Source: Candidatus Latescibacterota bacterium
Lineage (GTDB): Bacteria; Latescibacterota; UBA2968; UBA8231
DNA length: 64,000 nucleotides
Direction: 5' to 3'
Assembly (NCBI GenBank): GCA_965215195.1
Contig: CBDCDC010000002.1
Coordinates: 3,968,001-4,032,000, forward strand
Shown: positions 51,406 to 59,422 of the stretch, one piece after another
Position numbering within the stretch: the first letter of the stretch is position 1
How the letters are laid out: the number at the start of each line of letters is the position of its first letter
Made by a program: the position numbers and the translations under genes
Notes under the pieces: model-generated
What the model saw: the letters and a program-made list of their open reading frames with translations, nothing else
Databases searched by the model: none
What the model was told of the DNA's origin: nothing

Positions 51406-52116
51406 ATGAACGACGAAAAACAGCTCGACAAAGAAAAAAAGAAATTTGCCGCGGCCGCGGGGCGCGAGGCGTCCTTGGAAGCGGTGGACGATAAGGGGCG
51501 GACGGACCTGCACCGTGCAGCGACCTTGAACCTGCCCGTCCTGACTGCATCCCTGCTGCACAGCGGCATGGATGTCGACGTCAAGGACAAGGAAGGGATG
51601 ACGCCGCTGCACATTGCGTCAATGGAGCATGCGGTTGAGGTCCCGAGAGTTTTGCTGCACAGCGGGGCCGATGCCAACGCCAAGGATAAGGACGGCTTGA
51701 CGCCGCTGCACATTGCGACGGCGCGGAGTGCGATTGAAGTGGCGGAGCTTCTGCTGGAGCACGGCGCGGATATCAACGCCAAGAACTACTACAGCGGCCT
51801 GACGCCGCTGCACATTGTGACGATGCGAGATGCGGTTGAGGGTGCGAAGTTTCTGCTGGAGCGCGGCGCGGATGCCAACGCCAAGAACTACCACGATGGC
51901 CTGACGCCGCTGCACATTGCGACGATGCGAAATGTTTTTCGCGTGGCCGAGCTTTTGCTGGAGCACGGCGCGGATGTCAACGCCGAGACTAAAGAAGGCT
52001 GGACGTCGTTGTTTCTTGCAACACACAAAAAAGATACGGTCAGTGTGGTGCTCCGGTTCTTTGGGCTGGAGACGAGGATGGTGCGTTTGTTGCGCTGGCA
52101 CGGGGGCGAGGAGTAA
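51406..52116 (+). CDS. Ankyrin-repeat protein
   Basis: Four GxTPLH...LLxxGADxNAK repeats plus degenerate flanking units. Confidence 0.95.
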   Translation: MNDEKQLDKEKKKFAAAAGREASLEAVDDKGRTDLHRAATLNLPVLTASLLHSGMDVDVKDKEGMTPLHIASMEHAVEVPRVLLHSGADANAKDKDGLTPLHIATARSAIEVAELLLEHGADINAKNYYSGLTPLHIVTMRDAVEGAKFLLERGADANAKNYHDGLTPLHIATMRNVFRVAELLLEHGADVNAETKEGWTSLFLATHKKDTVSVVLRFFGLETRMVRLLRWHGGEE

Positions 52117-52136: not shown

Positions 52137-53072
52137 ATGGGGCAGAAGAAGACCAGATTTAAGCTGCTTGCCATAGGCTTAGGCGTGGTTGCTCTCTTGG
52201 TTGGGGGCAAAATGTATGTCGATCATGCCGAACAGTCGGCGTTGGAGCAGCAGCGTCAGGAGCAGGCATTTGTCGAAGAGGTGGGGCGCATGCCCGATCC
52301 GCAGGAGAAGACCGACCTGCACGTTGCAGCGAGACTGAACCTACCCGTGCTGACTAGATCCCTGTTGGCTGGGGGCGCGGATGTCCACGCCAAAGACAGC
52401 AAGGGCCGGACGCCGCTGCACGTAGCGGCGAGTGTTGATACTTCTACGACAGCGGCAGTGTTGCTGGCTGGGGGCGCGGATGTCCACGCCAAAGACCCCA
52501 AGGGCCAGACGCCGCTGCACGTGGCGGCATTGAGGGATGCTTCTGCGACAGCGGCGGTGTTGTTAGCTGAGGGCGCGGATGTCCACGCCAAAGACCCCAA
52601 GGGCCGGACGCCACTGCACGTAGCGGCGAATGTTGATGCTTCTGCGGCGGCGGCGGTGTTGTTAGCTGAGGGCGCGGATGTCCACGCCAAAGACAGCTAT
52701 GGCTTTACCCCGTTGCACGTGGCGGCGGCTTCTGCGAGAGTGGCGGTAGTGCTGACTGAGGGGGCGGATGTCCGCGCCAAAGCCAGCAAGGGCCGGCCGC
52801 GGCCGCGCTTGGCGGCGTTGGGGGATGCTTCTGCGACAGCGGAGTTATTGCTGGCGCGGGGGGCGGATGTCGATGCCAAAACCAACAATGGCGACACGCC
52901 GCTGCATTTGGCGACGTTGCGGGATGCCTCTGCGACGGCGGAGTTATTGCTGGCGCGGGGGGCGGATGTCGATGCCAAAACCAACAATGGCGACACACCG
53001 CTGCATTTGGCGACGTTGGGGAATGCTTCTGCGACGGCCGAGGTGTTGCGCCGTTACGGTGCGCGAGAGTGA
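52137..53072 (+). CDS. Membrane-anchored ankyrin-repeat protein
   Basis: N-terminal TM helix, then about 7 near-identical 99-bp ankyrin units. Confidence 0.95.
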   Translation: MGQKKTRFKLLAIGLGVVALLVGGKMYVDHAEQSALEQQRQEQAFVEEVGRMPDPQEKTDLHVAARLNLPVLTRSLLAGGADVHAKDSKGRTPLHVAASVDTSTTAAVLLAGGADVHAKDPKGQTPLHVAALRDASATAAVLLAEGADVHAKDPKGRTPLHVAANVDASAAAAVLLAEGADVHAKDSYGFTPLHVAAASARVAVVLTEGADVRAKASKGRPRPRLAALGDASATAELLLARGADVDAKTNNGDTPLHLATLRDASATAELLLARGADVDAKTNNGDTPLHLATLGNASATAEVLRRYGARE

Positions 53073-53379: not shown

Positions 53380-55551
53380 ATGAACAACGAACAGCATCGC
53401 TTGGCGCTGCCGCAGGGGACGCGCATCCGGGACTTTGAGTTTCACCGCGTCCTCGGCCACGGCGGGTTTGGCATCACCTATCTGGGATGGAACATGGCCT
53501 TGGATATTCCCGTGGCGATCAAGGAGTATCTGCCGGCCGACTTGGCTACCCGCGAGCAGGACTTGTCGGTCGTGCCGCAGACGACGCAGGCGGCGTCGGA
53601 TTTCCAATGGGGCTTGGAGCGGTTTTTGGACGAAGCGCGTACGCTGGCGCGCTTTCAGCACCCCAACATCGTCCGCGTCCATCACTTCTTTGAAGCGCAC
53701 AGCACGGCGTATATCGCAATGGACTATGTGGAGGGGGAGGACTTGTCGGCGTATTTGACGCGCAAGGGGCCGCTGCGCGAAGACGAGCTAAAGGGTATTC
53801 TGGATCCGCTGTTGAGTGCCTTAGAAGTGGTGCATAGAGCGGACTTTCTGCATCGGGACATCAAGCCGGGCAACATCGTCCTGCGCGATTCGGATGGCTC
53901 GCCGGTGTTGTTGGACTTTGGTGCGGCGCGGCAGGCGATTGGGGCGAAGAGCCGCTCGGTGACGTCGATTGTAACGCCGGGATATGCGCCGATAGAGCAG
54001 TATTCGAGTCGGGGTCGTCAGGGTGCATGGACGGATATTTATGCGTTGGGCGGGGTGTGCTATCGGGCGTTGACGGGTCAGGTGCCGGACGATGCGACGG
54101 ATCGGGTGCGTCATGATCCGCTGGTTCCGGTGTCTGAGCGGTGTGCGGGTCAAGCCAGTCCAGCGTTTCTTGCGGCGATCGATGCGGCGTTGGCAGTGGA
54201 TGAGGAGGATCGTCCGCCGAGTGTGGGGGCATGGCGGGCGATGCTGGCGGCAGATGCGGCGGATGTGCAGGAACGGGCGACGTTGGAGCAACCGCGTCGG
54301 GAGGCACAAGCCGAACAGCAGCGTCGGGAACAGCAGCGCGAGGAGAGGCAGCGGCAGGAGGAACGGGCGCGTGTGGAGCCGGCCGCGCCGCCCTCGGCAC
54401 CGCAGAAGCAGCCCAGCTACAAGCGGCTTGCCGTAGTCTTGGGCGTGGTTATTGCTCTGTTGGTTGGGGGCAAACTGTATGTTGATCACGTCGAACAGGT
54501 CGCGTTGGAGAAGCAGCGTCAGGCCGAACAAGCCGCCGAAGCCGCCCGAGTCGCCGCCGAGCAAGCCGCCAAACAGCGCCAGGCCGAACAAGCCGCCGAA
54601 GCCGCCCGAGTCGCCGCCGAGCAAGCCGCCAAACAGCGTCGGGCCGAGCAAGCCGCCGAAGCGGCCCGAGTCGCCGCCGAGCAAGCCGCCAAACAGCGTC
54701 AGGCCGAGCAAGCCGCCGAAGCGGCCCGAGTCGCCGCCGAGCAAGCCGAAAAACAGCGTCAGGCCGAGCAAGCCGCCGAAGCGGCCCGAGTCGCCGCCGA
54801 GCAGGCGGCGTTGGAAGAAGAGCGCAAGAGTGGCAAGGTGGTTTCGCTTCCGGGGGGTGGGGAGATGGCGTTTGTTTGGATCGCGCCGGGTGTATTTCAG
54901 ATGGGGTCGCCGGCTTCGGAAGAGGGTCAGGAAAATAATGAAGGGCCGGTGCATGAGGTGGAGATTAGCGCGGGGTTTTGGTTGGGTCAATACGAGGTTA
55001 CGCAGGGTCAGTGGGCGTCGGTGATGAGGGCGCGGCCTTGGCTTGGTAAGAAGAACGTTGTAGAGAATTCATCTCATCCGGCGGTGTATATCTCATGGCA
55101 TGATGTGCAGAGATTTATTGGTCGGTTGAATAAGGCGGCGGGGGCTTCGTTGTATCGGTTGCCTTCGGAGGCGGAGTGGGAGTATGCGTGTCGAGCGGGT
55201 ACATCGACTCGTTGGTCGTTTGGGGATGCCGAGAGGCAACTGACGGATTATGCGTGGTATGATGCTAATGCTTGGGATGCTCATGCGGTGGGTCTGAAGC
55301 GTCCTAACCCTTGGGGTTTGTATGACATGCATGGGAATGTGTCGGAGTGGGTTCAGGACAGGTATAGTAAGCGCTATTATAATAGCTCGCCTCGGGTTGA
55401 CCCCCGGGGGCCTTCATCCGGTGCCGATCGCGTCGTCCAGGGCGGCTCCTTCTACAGTTCCGCCCAAGCCGCGCGGTCGGCGTTTCGCTACGGCCTCTCG
55501 CCCGACGCCCGCTACGCCACCGTTGGTGTGCGCCTTCTCAGGATTCGTTAA
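53380..55551 (+). CDS. Ser/Thr protein kinase - TM - coiled-coil stalk - FGE-sulfatase (C-type-lectin fold) protein
   Basis: GHGGFG, VAIKE, HRDIKPGN, DFG, YAPIEQ; TM near residue 350; FQMGS, YEVTQGQW, RLPSEAEWEYACRAG, NPWGLYDMHGNVSEW. Confidence 0.93.
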   Translation: MNNEQHRLALPQGTRIRDFEFHRVLGHGGFGITYLGWNMALDIPVAIKEYLPADLATREQDLSVVPQTTQAASDFQWGLERFLDEARTLARFQHPNIVRVHHFFEAHSTAYIAMDYVEGEDLSAYLTRKGPLREDELKGILDPLLSALEVVHRADFLHRDIKPGNIVLRDSDGSPVLLDFGAARQAIGAKSRSVTSIVTPGYAPIEQYSSRGRQGAWTDIYALGGVCYRALTGQVPDDATDRVRHDPLVPVSERCAGQASPAFLAAIDAALAVDEEDRPPSVGAWRAMLAADAADVQERATLEQPRREAQAEQQRREQQREERQRQEERARVEPAAPPSAPQKQPSYKRLAVVLGVVIALLVGGKLYVDHVEQVALEKQRQAEQAAEAARVAAEQAAKQRQAEQAAEAARVAAEQAAKQRRAEQAAEAARVAAEQAAKQRQAEQAAEAARVAAEQAEKQRQAEQAAEAARVAAEQAALEEERKSGKVVSLPGGGEMAFVWIAPGVFQMGSPASEEGQENNEGPVHEVEISAGFWLGQYEVTQGQWASVMRARPWLGKKNVVENSSHPAVYISWHDVQRFIGRLNKAAGASLYRLPSEAEWEYACRAGTSTRWSFGDAERQLTDYAWYDANAWDAHAVGLKRPNPWGLYDMHGNVSEWVQDRYSKRYYNSSPRVDPRGPSSGADRVVQGGSFYSSAQAARSAFRYGLSPDARYATVGVRLLRIR
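54514..54803 (+). repeat. 60-bp tandem repeat, about 5 copies (QRQAEQAAEAARVAAEQAAK)
   Basis: Consecutive 60-nt lines 54541-54800 are near-identical. Confidence 0.97.
55415..55551 (+). other. Putative DGR variable region
   Basis: In RVVQGGSFYSSAQAARSAFRYGLSPDARYATVG the positions that vary in DGR C-lectin targets use NNC/NNT codons; codon style changes sharply from upstream. Confidence 0.6.
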
Positions 55552-55675
55552 CCCTTTAGCCCTTTTACCCTTGGCGGGCCTCACGCGATTCCCGAGCGTT
55601 TCGCCCTAGCGGCTTGGCCGATGCCGTAAACGTGATAGTTTCTAAGTAGCCCCCACCCCCAGCAAGGAGCAAGCC

Positions 55676-55906
55676 ATGACCGAGCAACCCCTAACACAAG
55701 CCCAAGACCACGACCGGCGTATTGGCCGGTTAGAAGGAATCGCCGAGCAGTTAGACCGCCGCTTGGACAGTATTGAGCGGGCGATTGGGGAACTACGGCA
55801 GGAGATGGCCGCGCTCAATCGCCGCCTCGACGTTCAATTCCGCTGGTTCATCGGCATCCAGTTCGGCGTTGTCGGCCTGCTTATCAGCATCCTGTTAAAG
55901 GGCTAA
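55676..55906 (+). CDS. Small coiled-coil protein with C-terminal TM anchor, paralog 1 (DUF1640/XhlA-like architecture)
   Basis: RBS AAGGAG; heptad repeat followed by RWFIGIQFGVVGLLISILL. Confidence 0.85.
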   Translation: MTEQPLTQAQDHDRRIGRLEGIAEQLDRRLDSIERAIGELRQEMAALNRRLDVQFRWFIGIQFGVVGLLISILLKG

Positions 55907-56026: not shown

Positions 56027-57678
56027 CTATCCCGTACGCAGTGTTGCCACCCGATCCAGCTTTTCCACGACTTCCGGGTGGATTTCGTCGGGTCGCATCG
56101 CGGCGGCCAGCAGATACAAGTCCCGCTTAGGCGTGGGTGCGAGTAGCGGCACGAGGAACTCGTCACTGGCCTTGACGCGCACCAGCGAGACGTGATCCCC
56201 AAATAGGTCGGTCCCGCGAGGAACCTGTCGCCAAAACGCCTCTTCCACCGACTTTTCCACCAACGGGAAGTTGGCGAACCGCTTGATCGCCTCGGGCTGC
56301 AACAGATAGTTCTCGATCTCGTAGCGACGCCAGCGCAAGACCACGAGGCCAGCACGGCTGGTCTCCTCGTCCGGTTCGTCGCGGTTGTCGCCATCGAGCA
56401 GGCACAGGGCCGGCAGCCCGGGAAAGGCGGCCTGCATGGCGAAGAAGTGATCTCGGGCTTCGCGCAGACTGCGACCGCCGAGCGGGCGCACAAACGGCCG
56501 CTCAAAGAAGGTCCGCGCCGGATGCTGGAGAATGCGCGCCCACTCACCCAAGATTCGCTCGTCTGTCTCCCCTTCAACGTAGAGCACTGCGCCGACCTCG
56601 CGGCCCAATAGGAGATCAGTGGTGGTCAGACGCTTGAGGGCTTCGCGCAGTTGATTGCGCTGGATTTCGCCGATAAGTGGACGGGGCGATTCACTAAAAA
56701 ATCCGAGCACCCGCGTCGGCTCAGTGGCGTCGAGGACGACCTCGGAATGCGTGGCAATGAGCACTTGACCGCCGCGTTCGCGGGCCACCTTGCGAATCAG
56801 ATCGTACACCTGTCGTTGCAGGATGACGTGCTGATGGGCGTCCGGCTCGTCGAGCAGGATGACGGCCGCCGGGCGGGCGTAGAGGAATGCCAGCAGCAGG
56901 AGTACTTGTAGGGTGCCGCTGCCGGCGTTGGACAAATCGAGGGGCCTATCGCGGTCCGGCTCGCGGTACTCGCAGACGATGTACGGTTGGGCCGGAGCGT
57001 ACGATGGCGCGAGCACTTCGATTTGAAAGAGGGTGCGGATGTGCTCGGCGAGTAGCCGCCAGTTTTCCGGGCTGTTTTCGGAAATTTCCCACAGCAGATT
57101 GCGCAGAATCTCGCCCGGCCGCCCCTGACCCACGAGCAGATCTTGCATCCCTCGGTCGCGCCGCGGCTCGTCTCGCTCAATACCGGCGAGAGGCGGAACG
57201 TGAACGATGTCGAGTTCCCGGGCCGTTAGGGGTGGGAACGCCCGAATGGCTTCCGGATCGAGATTTTTGGCCCCTGCGGACGCGCATGTACCACTTCGGG
57301 ATTGGAGTACTGGAATTCGATTCCGCACGTCCAGTCCTCCTTGCCTTTTGTGCCCTCCACGACGATTTCGATCAGCCGCCGAGTTCCCGACATACCGCGC
57401 GGGCCGGTGACCTTCCGTCCCTCCCACAATAGATTCATCTCGCGCAGCGGCACGGCCGTGAAGTCGGCGCGGGTTATGGCCACGCCGGAGCGCTTGACCG
57501 CCCGGCCCCCCTCGCGCTGGGCGAGCCAGCGGTCGAGCCCGAGCTTCCACGTTGCAATGGCCTGTAGCAGGGTGGACTTCCCGGCATTGTTGGGGCCGGC
57601 GAGCACCACCGACGCGGCCAACTCAAACGTCTGCTCGCGAAAACGCTTGAACTTTCTGATAGTAATGCGCCGGATCAT
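56027..57678 (-). pseudogene. ABC/AAA ATPase with TOPRIM-like C-terminus (OLD-like), frameshifted at 57271-57274
   Basis: GPNNAGKS, GSGTLQ, LLDEPDAH, IATHS, YVEGETD, LDGD, YEIENY; one extra G in the GGGG run joins the two ORFs. Confidence 0.75.
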
Positions 57679-59110: not shown

Positions 59111-59179
59111 GGGCTAACCCATCACCCGCCCCGGCTGGCCCTTGTGCTGGCCGGGGCCGAGCCAACGAAAGGAACCATC

Positions 59180-59422
59180 ATGCAGCAGCCCCCCGAAGTC
59201 AACCCCAACCCCGTGCAAGTGGAGTTGTCCAAGCGGTTAGACAGCATTGAGTGCCGCCTCGACCGCATGGAGACCCACCAACGCGAGGCCATAGCCGCCT
59301 TGCGGCAGAAAATAACCACCTTGCGGCAGGAAATGAACCGCAATGTGCGTTGGATAATCGGCGTTCAGCTCACCACCCTGATCGCGCTGGGTACGCTGAT
59401 TTTGTCCCGCTTGCCCAAGTAG
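59180..59422 (+). CDS. Small coiled-coil/TM protein, divergent paralog 4
   Basis: RLDSIE...LRQEMNRNVRWIIGVQLTTLIALGTLIL; RBS AAGGA. Confidence 0.8.
   Translation: MQQPPEVNPNPVQVELSKRLDSIECRLDRMETHQREAIAALRQKITTLRQEMNRNVRWIIGVQLTTLIALGTLILSRLPK

Follow-up and report, generated by a model that had tools for sequence, protein, structure and literature searches.

An apparently fossil variable region of a diversity-generating retroelement at the outer tip of a receptor-like kinase from a Latescibacterota bacterium

Receptor kinase gene

The DNA analysed here (the window) is a stretch of 64,000 nucleotides from Candidatus Latescibacterota bacterium (GenBank assembly GCA_965215195.1, contig CBDCDC010000002.1, positions 3,968,001 to 4,032,000 of the forward strand); coordinates without a contig prefix are those of the window. 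At 53380..55551 on the plus strand, the open reading frame (ORF) list and Pfam place a gene for a 723-aa receptor-like Ser/Thr kinase with a presumably outward domain of the formylglycine-generating enzyme (FGE)/C-type lectin type. The last part of this gene, which encodes the tip of the protein, probably represents a fossilised variable region that a diversity-generating retroelement (DGR) once rewrote. All features of the gene given below lie on the plus strand.

The kinase domain (residues 19-238, 53434..54093) was detected with Pfam PF00069 Pkinase (E 9.6e-36). The Gly-rich loop (GHGGFG26), the VAIK Lys (VAIK45), the HRD loop (HRDIKPGN158), and DFG (DFG179) were all read in it, as expected of a predicted Hanks-type (eukaryote-like) Ser/Thr kinase. 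Kyte-Doolittle hydropathy gave one peak above 1.6, at approximately residues 345-371 (19-aa windows with starts at 345-353), which places a single predicted membrane helix at about residues 350-368 (54427..54483) with K348 and R349 just before it. The likely topology is N-in/C-out, with the kinase inside and the lectin domain outside. A stalk of 4.8 copies of a 60-bp repeat (20 aa, Ala/Glu/Gln-rich) follows at 54514..54803 (Tandem Repeats Finder, 96% matches, score 524), and the gene ends in an FGE-sulfatase/C-type-lectin-fold domain (residues 497-721, 54868..55542, Pfam E 1.9e-47). The order kinase, membrane helix, 20-aa repeat stalk, and FGE/C-lectin domain had been proposed by a first-pass annotation made from the sequence and its ORFs, and it is borne out by the Pfam matches, the single hydropathy peak, and the repeat.

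An AlphaFold2 model of residues 486-723, for which the input alignment had 27 rows, reached a mean predicted local distance difference test (pLDDT) score of 77.7 and a predicted TM-score (pTM) of 0.82, with the lowest confidence in residues 128-139, 183-188, and 208-216 of the model. Foldseek returned PvdO (5hha) and TvpA (2y3c, query TM-score [TMq] 0.82, E 3.5e-16) at the top, followed by formylglycine-generating enzymes, and the best sequence relative in the PDB found using phmmer was also TvpA (2y3c, E 5.5e-29). The final 80 residues of the receptor kinase contain no Cys, and a 3-residue gap without Cys lies opposite the LCHDSYC of the Streptomyces enzyme (PDB 2q17). The two Cys of that motif are taken by us to be the catalytic pair; PDB titles of formylglycine-generating enzyme structures name C336S and C341S mutants. 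Since the Cys pair is gone from the C-terminal segment, the domain does not have the predicted active site of a catalytic formylglycine-generating enzyme and is read as a non-catalytic, ligand-binding lectin-fold domain.

Two ankyrin-repeat genes lie directly upstream (52137-53072 and 51406-52116, both on the plus strand), and the N-terminus of the second ankyrin protein, comprising the membrane helix and juxtamembrane part, has 25 of 37 residues in common with the receptor kinase. Kinase-ankyrin fusions are numerous among the database relatives. These sequences suggest a modular family made up of a kinase, a helix, and a swappable outer domain (FGE, ankyrin, or TonB-like).

Terminal block

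The composition of the gene breaks at about 55384, from which point a template-derived block with variable-region homology and C-ending codons runs to the stop codon (55384..55551, ~168 nt, matched at 80-82% identity by four further loci in the genome). C stands at the third position of 10 of 181 scaffold codons versus 29 of 55 codons of the block, and GC skew is +0.34 to +0.48 over 54825-55350 versus -0.05 to -0.20 over 55350-55650. A late switch to C-rich codons had been noticed from the sequence alone, and the block is somewhat longer than the ~135 bp claimed for it. The FGE scaffold (54825-55380) and the scaffolds of three paralogs use few third-position C (7-18) and A (10-20) per ~180 codons. 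GC skew is near zero at the kinase start (+0.02 to +0.13 over 53400-53774) and +0.2 to +0.39 over the remaining kinase and the linker.

Within the block, a core with variable codons that appears to be adenine-mutagenised (55423..55524) was delimited from hypervariable columns and from comparison with a related template in another genus (genome G096, see below). The core is followed by a conserved 3' end, GGT GTG CGC CTT CTC AGG ATT CGT TAA (55525..55551). Five of these nine codons are invariant in all 10 copies aligned below; changes occur at the third position of GGT, at the first and third of CTC, and, in a single copy, at the third of TAA. The G096 template ceases to be homologous at the 3' end of the block, after CGCCTTTTG. 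By position, this end resembles an initiation of mutagenic homing (IMH) site, and it may have functioned as one.

An 8-nt pyrimidine repeat of 3.1 copies (55548..55572, Tandem Repeats Finder) lies behind the stop codon, where the first-pass annotation had seen it, and is kept behind the stop codon of other copies of the block. In minimum free energy (MFE) folds of 12 copies, made without a shuffle control, the repeat forms a 5' arm, which in 7 of the 12 is paired with G-rich sequence further downstream; in the same folds, the G-rich 3' arm is missing behind the receptor kinase gene. Comparable pyrimidine repeats were found behind DGR targets in two other genomes (G032 and G027). The pyrimidine/purine structure may be either a homing hairpin or a terminator.

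Copies in the genome and the genus

The block (query of 221 nt, 55380-55600) was searched with blastn against its own genome (G000, an assembly of 6.13 Mb in two contigs, C1 and C2). Four further copies share 80-82% identity with the query over 193-199 nt, another shares 74%, and some match more weakly. At C2:2889521 (c2889), a copy ends a second kinase-helix-repeat-FGE gene of 755 aa; at C2:4041163 (c4041), 9 kb past the window end, it ends a small secreted FGE protein of 276 aa; at C2:1766708 (c1766), it ends a 1569-aa secreted surface repeat protein; and at C1:551868, it lies in a truncated gene remnant.

The four full-length paralogs were compared over 163 aligned scaffold codons and 55 block codons. 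Variable columns at codon positions 1/2/3 numbered 44/42/81 in the scaffold and 18/19/13 in the block, and four-fold degenerate sites differed between paralogs at 16 of 172 pair-sites in the block versus 99 of 349 in the adjoining scaffold. The blocks are thus more alike than their host genes at silent sites and far more different at particular codons, and overwriting from one template gives exactly such a pattern. Two subfamilies, one of the receptor kinase gene and c1766 and the other of c2889 and c4041, share several non-adenine differences. Four-fold differences of the block, compared with a view to dating the last writing, amounted to 28 of 284 pair-sites within the genome and 35 of 265 between it and genome G018 of the same genus; those in syntenic flanks were 235 of 1902 (G018) and 293 of 1380 (G021), all small numbers, with the longest frames taken as the flank ORFs.

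Among 24 genomes of the genus that were searched, the block was present in nine, always as a gene end or a fragment. A 4.8-kb insertion in G018 (L080 6825-11672) is flanked by two permease-like genes; in G000, the counterparts of these genes are directly adjacent (C1:250935/250936). The insertion holds a 316-aa ORF, which contains a GIEQ repeat and matches no Pfam family, and a 1052-aa surface protein with a block-type tip (domains CarboxypepD_reg, FlgD_ig, dockerin, Big_9, VWA, and FGE). In G021, another block-bearing gene replaces 5.4 kb. The permease-like genes look lptF/lptG-like by eye only. By eye, the 316-aa ORF had been taken for a recombination nuclease, a reading that was set aside for want of a Pfam match. 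Pairs of matches 1.1 kb apart in G018, considered as a variable region and its template, proved to be two FGE domains of one 970-aa protein, and short matches in G021, G022, and G009 were gene ends or fragments with no reverse transcriptase (RT) nearby.

Adenine-type variation

Ten non-redundant copies (five from G000 and five from G018, G021, and G003) were aligned over 123 columns from CGC GTC to the stop; copies from G022 and G006 were left out, each being 1 base from G021b and G003, respectively. Hypervariable columns (at least three bases) made up 33 of the 123, with 14 at codon position 1, 16 at position 2, and 3 at position 3, and A was present in at least one copy at 27 of the 33. The 64 invariant columns comprised 23 C, 25 G, 13 T, and 3 A, and all three A fall in the final four codons, so that no adenine is invariant within the block core among the 10 copies. 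Sixteen variable codons of the form NNY had been named by the first-pass annotation; 15 of them are strongly variable in the alignment, and GAC varies only between A and G at position 2. As far as sequence can tell, this pattern is the mark of a DGR. The block ends an FGE domain with a fold near those of TvpA and PvdO, that is, it lies at the 3' gene end in a C-lectin/FGE-type fold, as a DGR variable region does.

Related template in another genus

A profile of 12 DGR RTs from metagenome loci was run over 132 genomes of the class and matched at E 5e-120 to 4e-119 in three of them, namely G032, G063, and G096, the last of which belongs to the same family but to another genus; shorter, remnant-like RT pieces of 114-178 aa were found in G086, G027, and G036. 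The G096 locus (L093, C1:868225-871362 of that genome) encodes a 303-aa RT (RVT_1/PF00078 E 2.7e-16, DGR profile E 5e-120) that lacks about the first 48 profile positions. Immediately behind it is an adenine-rich repeat, the template, reading GSNRVIRGGNFNNDARNVRSANRNNNSPGNRNNDVGVRLL, followed by one adjacent target, a 321-aa FGE protein without a kinase, and then by ORFs of an IS4/5-type transposase. The full-length RTs of other families of the class are at L084 (G032) and L085 (G063), and RT pieces at L086 (G086) and L090 (G027); in G032, the differences between template and target fall on adenines by eye.

The non-A positions of the G096 template largely match the block. In the receptor kinase gene, 22 of 29 template A were changed versus 17 of 102 non-A (odds ratio 15.7, p 4.8e-9). 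The corresponding counts were 17/28 and 9/96 for c2889 (odds ratio 14.9, p 7.5e-8), 16/28 and 10/96 for c4041 (odds ratio 11.5, p 9.4e-7), and 18/27 and 9/90 for the target of G096 itself (odds ratio 18.0, p 1.4e-8); over the five copies of the genus tested besides the receptor kinase gene, p ranged from 9.6e-9 to 4.3e-5. Differences among the paralog 3' ends are concentrated at template-adenine positions, as had been expected of a DGR target; with a related template in place of the true one, the support for variation restricted to adenines is strong but indirect. Several non-adenine differences from the G096 template are common to all copies of the genus. Because of the non-A differences, including these common ones, the G096 template is regarded as a cousin of the lost template and not as the author of the blocks. 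In the G096 pair itself, 18 of 27 mismatches are on A, and this DGR is probably aged and in decay, judging by its target and truncated RT.

Search for template, reverse transcriptase, and Avd

The cognate template was sought in the 6.13-Mb assembly using blastn (E up to 10), nhmmer --max with a profile of five copies, and scans for AAY codons; no template was found, and variable-type copies alone were returned. Candidates from nhmmer at C2:1272781, C2:1261364, C2:4782079, C2:3275610, C1:1026716, and C2:2911771 were 3' ends of other FGE genes, none adenine-rich. The copy at C1:551868, which has no FGE scaffold upstream, was considered as a template and is read as a truncated gene end, since its codons are of the variable type and its 3' flank is that of a target.

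No DGR-type RT was found in the genome with PF00078, which matched a 599-aa group-II-like RT (C-terminal Cys/His, HNH-like motif) and a 568-aa retron-like RT, neither of them near a copy of the block. The same two RTs were the only matches of a hidden Markov model (HMM) of 20 DGR RTs among 87,985 six-frame ORFs of at least 40 aa, and the Avd family (PF05635) had no match in the genome. As PF00078 detects the RT of G096 (E 2.7e-16), the genome search could have seen a DGR RT. Among 31 genomes of the genus, the own one included, RVT_1 was present in 15, at 17 loci. The SQ..AN motif, whose fixed residues (S, Q, A, and N) are invariant in 12 of 12 DGR RTs, occurred in none of the 16 RT ORFs of the genus that have a YxDD box; the 17th locus (L043) gave no such ORF. 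A 335-aa RT frame in G001 belongs to a group-II RT into which an insertion has been placed; the ORF of this insertion is transposase-like by eye.

A template pattern allowing at most 2 mismatches gave one chance match in the 31 genomes of the genus, inside a gene that is dioxygenase-like by eye. Template pattern 1, run over genome contigs, retrieved one unrelated DGR of a Planctomyces metagenome-assembled genome. The 31 loci that pattern 2 retrieved from metagenomes were generic DGRs throughout, none like the block beyond 73% over at most 170 nt. Two block-specific patterns and two template patterns returned nothing from the IMG/VR viral contigs. The first-pass annotation had reported no local RT or template, which can now be extended to the whole genome; neither a template-like copy nor a DGR RT was found in this genome or in the 31 genomes of its genus.

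Invariance of the tip

The ortholog P0002 (89% identity over its full length) agrees with the receptor kinase at 284 of 290 residues of the kinase, 157 of 182 of the FGE scaffold, and 56 of 56 of the tip. A 161-nt unitig over 55392-55552 was recovered from Logan contigs of runs X6, X7, and X9 and showed 0 differences in each of them. The unitig had a depth of 208.8 in X6 (flanks 209 and 194) and 12.3 in X7 (flanks 10.1-12.9). Copies of the block from separate species genomes, paired as G021b/G022 and G003/G006, are 1 base apart per ~200. Judged by the P0002 tip and the contigs of the three runs, the block was not variable within a population or between close relatives. Sponge-metagenome runs X1-X5, in which the sequence had a small share, were set aside as habitat evidence; X2 held short pieces only, with 10-35 differences.

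The first-pass annotation had inferred a currently diversifying receptor serviced in trans. That part is not upheld, given the lack of a template or RT in the genome and the 31 genomes of the genus, the identical tip of P0002, and the three unchanged runs. Its view of the tip as a DGR-type variable region on an FGE-type C-lectin fold, linked via one membrane helix to a Ser/Thr kinase, holds. Since the paralog differences fall on template-adenine positions, the DGR origin stands, and only present activity falls.

Neighbouring genes and block fragments

On the minus strand behind the receptor kinase gene (56027-57678), an AAA_15/AAA_21-type ATPase is spread over two overlapping frames, with the P-loop N-terminus in the ORF at 57226-57678 and the remainder in the ORF at 56027-57550; it is probably either a frameshifted pseudogene or an assembly error. 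Small proteins at 55676-55906 and 59144-59422 (both plus strand), and also at L028 7361-7999 (minus strand), recur near block-bearing genes here and in G018. They have no Pfam family and show by eye a heptad-like body of coiled-coil appearance and a hydrophobic C-terminal tail.

Intergenic DNA contains truncated 3' pieces of the block together with downstream flank at C1:551868-552066, C1:900743-900847, C1:905311-905338, and in G009 (L031 5369-5483). Two of the truncated pieces abut a motif of ~10-13 nt that is also found behind an FGE gene in G001. These pieces may be deletion remnants or may reflect some kind of mobility.

Interpretation

The tip of the receptor kinase is best explained, with a probability that we put at roughly 75%, as a fossil DGR variable region, the machinery having been lost and the tip fixed and inherited as ordinary coding sequence. 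In an ancestor, or by way of an element since lost from the lineage, a DGR RT would have copied one template repeat with errors at adenines. The template copy would have been written over the 3' ends of at least five genes, namely those of the two kinase receptors, the small secreted FGE protein, the 1569-aa surface protein, and the now-truncated gene, and each target would thereby have gained a binding surface of its own. The RT, the template, and the accessory gene would have been lost afterwards, and the tips would since then have been passed on as fixed ordinary coding sequence. What has been observed is the domain architecture, variation of the adenine type, a homogeneity of the block such as a template would give, the lack of the machinery, and the unchanged state of the tip, which is apparently fixed; the topology, the sensing of a ligand by the tip, and the sequence in which these events took place are inferred.

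Several observations weigh against this explanation. The pairs c4041/c2889 and G018a/G018b have 0/31 and 0/26 four-fold differences, respectively, and yet differ in their variable codons, so that some writing may be fairly recent. The cognate template itself was not found; copies of the genus differ from the related G096 template at 9-19 non-A sites, and 49-66% of their mismatches with it are on A, below the level of an active pair. The assembly has an estimated completeness of 95.2% and contamination of 8.5% (closed single-contig relatives also reach 93-95%), and plasmids or phages outside it could be carriers of a DGR. P0002 is a single ortholog and was compared as protein. Logan contigs drop rare variants; X6, X7, and X9 belong to one study, which is perhaps the source of the assembly itself, and the tip unitig of X9 has a depth of 294.7 versus 165.4 at the one flank listed.

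Occasional rewriting of the tip to this day by a DGR acting in trans, located on a phage, a plasmid, or a strain-variable island outside the chromosome assemblies, is unlikely. Remote DGR targets are known (as described in the available excerpts of PMC7517822), the block-bearing genes of G018 and G021 sit in flexible places (the 4.8-kb insertion and the 5.4-kb replacement), non-variable positions of the block are near-identical across species (see the G000/G018 four-fold counts and those of the flanks above), and the two paralog pairs without synonymous differences would also suit it. Against this are the lack of a template or DGR RT in the genome and in the 31 genomes of the genus, the IMG/VR search without matches to either kind of pattern, the 31 metagenome loci that stay at or below 73% over at most 170 nt, the tip, which a diverged ortholog has in identical form and which shows no change in three runs, and the hairpin of 7 of 12 copies that is missing behind the receptor kinase gene.

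Import is also improbable. In that case, the tips would have been diversified in other DGR-bearing bacteria and finished cassettes or genes acquired by horizontal gene transfer or recombination, the lineage never having had the element. Insertions that differ between species and carry block-bearing genes would agree with import, as would the codon composition of the block, which is unlike that of its own gene, the truncated fragments with 3' flank in intergenic DNA (C1:551868, G009, C1:900743, and C1:905311), and the sister-genus DGR, which has a related template and lies beside an insertion sequence. However, the same block ends quite different, lineage-typical architectures; the kinase and membrane modules of the two kinase receptors are common with local kinase-ankyrin relatives; the scaffolds beside the block are ordinary diverged paralogs; and transfer of the block alone needs a mechanism, of which the DGR is the known one.

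A mobile DGR that moves among species of the genus aboard a phage or plasmid, is never assembled with the chromosomes, and occasionally rewrites the block is quite improbable. If true, it would explain the near-constant non-variable positions of the block across species and insertion sites, and the receptor kinases and adhesins of many host species would all be served by one template. A history without any retroelement, in which paralogs diverged as usual while their binding loops were positively selected and gene conversion homogenised the remainder, is very improbable and already contradicted: C-lectin/FGE loops do tolerate change, and the non-adenine differences common within each of the two subfamilies are such as conversion would give, but left unexplained are the lack of an invariant core adenine, the gathering of hypervariable columns at positions 1-2 (30 of 33) while position 3 stays C/T, the bias of the changes towards adenines in a template that is independent and belongs to a different genus (p 4.8e-9), and the sharp composition break.

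On the preferred reading of a fossil variable region, the family shows what a DGR leaves behind, namely a few receptors and surface proteins that each have a different binding tip and that outlast the disappearance of the mutator across an entire genus. Annotators should not take such tips for signs of ongoing hypermutation unless a template, an RT, or population variation is present as well. A receptor kinase with an outward, once-diversified lectin head is a candidate sensor of host or microbial surface molecules, and the block family offers natural binding-site variants on one scaffold.

Comparison with known systems

In Treponema denticola, a resident DGR diversifies the lipoprotein TvpA (variable protein 1, 2y3c). 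TvpA resembles the tip of the receptor kinase in its FGE-type C-lectin fold and in the location of its variable residues in the last ~40, and differs in having no kinase, membrane helix, or stalk. The DGR of G096 shares the template family, the 3' end point of homology, and the FGE target, and differs in its single adjacent target without a kinase, its truncated RT, and the IS4/5-type transposase behind the target. Catalytic formylglycine-generating enzymes (PDB 2q17 and 1y1e) have the Pfam family and the fold in common with the receptor kinase, and differ in the Cys-bearing LCHDSYC (2q17) opposite its gap.

Both kinase-C-type lectin (CLec) targets of DGRs and orphaned targets are already in print. 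Pkn1/PknD-type kinases with CLec variable regions are listed in the available part of PMC11661182, and Pkinase is among the domains annotated in a DGR target figure of the Thiohalocapsa preprint, as far as its accessible portion goes. Active and inactive DGRs are defined by population variation in the available text of the Roux et al. preprint. A literature search combining DGR and sponge gave no paper on sponge symbionts among the titles returned.

The closest parallel is found in the available excerpts of PMC7517822 (2020), in which DGR targets of cyanobacteria include Ser/Thr-kinase-CLec variable proteins with remote paralogs. One paralog, all3226, retains remnant homology between template repeat and variable region with no RT nearby, and the suggestion is made there that the diversifier may be removed once a variant has been selected. 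According to the same excerpts, the cyanobacterial proteins are mostly predicted to be cytosolic and their genomes still have a DGR, whereas the present receptor kinase has a membrane helix and a repeat stalk, and no DGR was found in its own genome or in the 31 genomes of the genus. As far as those excerpts describe them, the two systems are alike in a Hanks-type kinase that carries a C-lectin/FGE domain at its C-terminus, with the variable region at the 3' end of that domain, and in several dispersed paralogs per genome.

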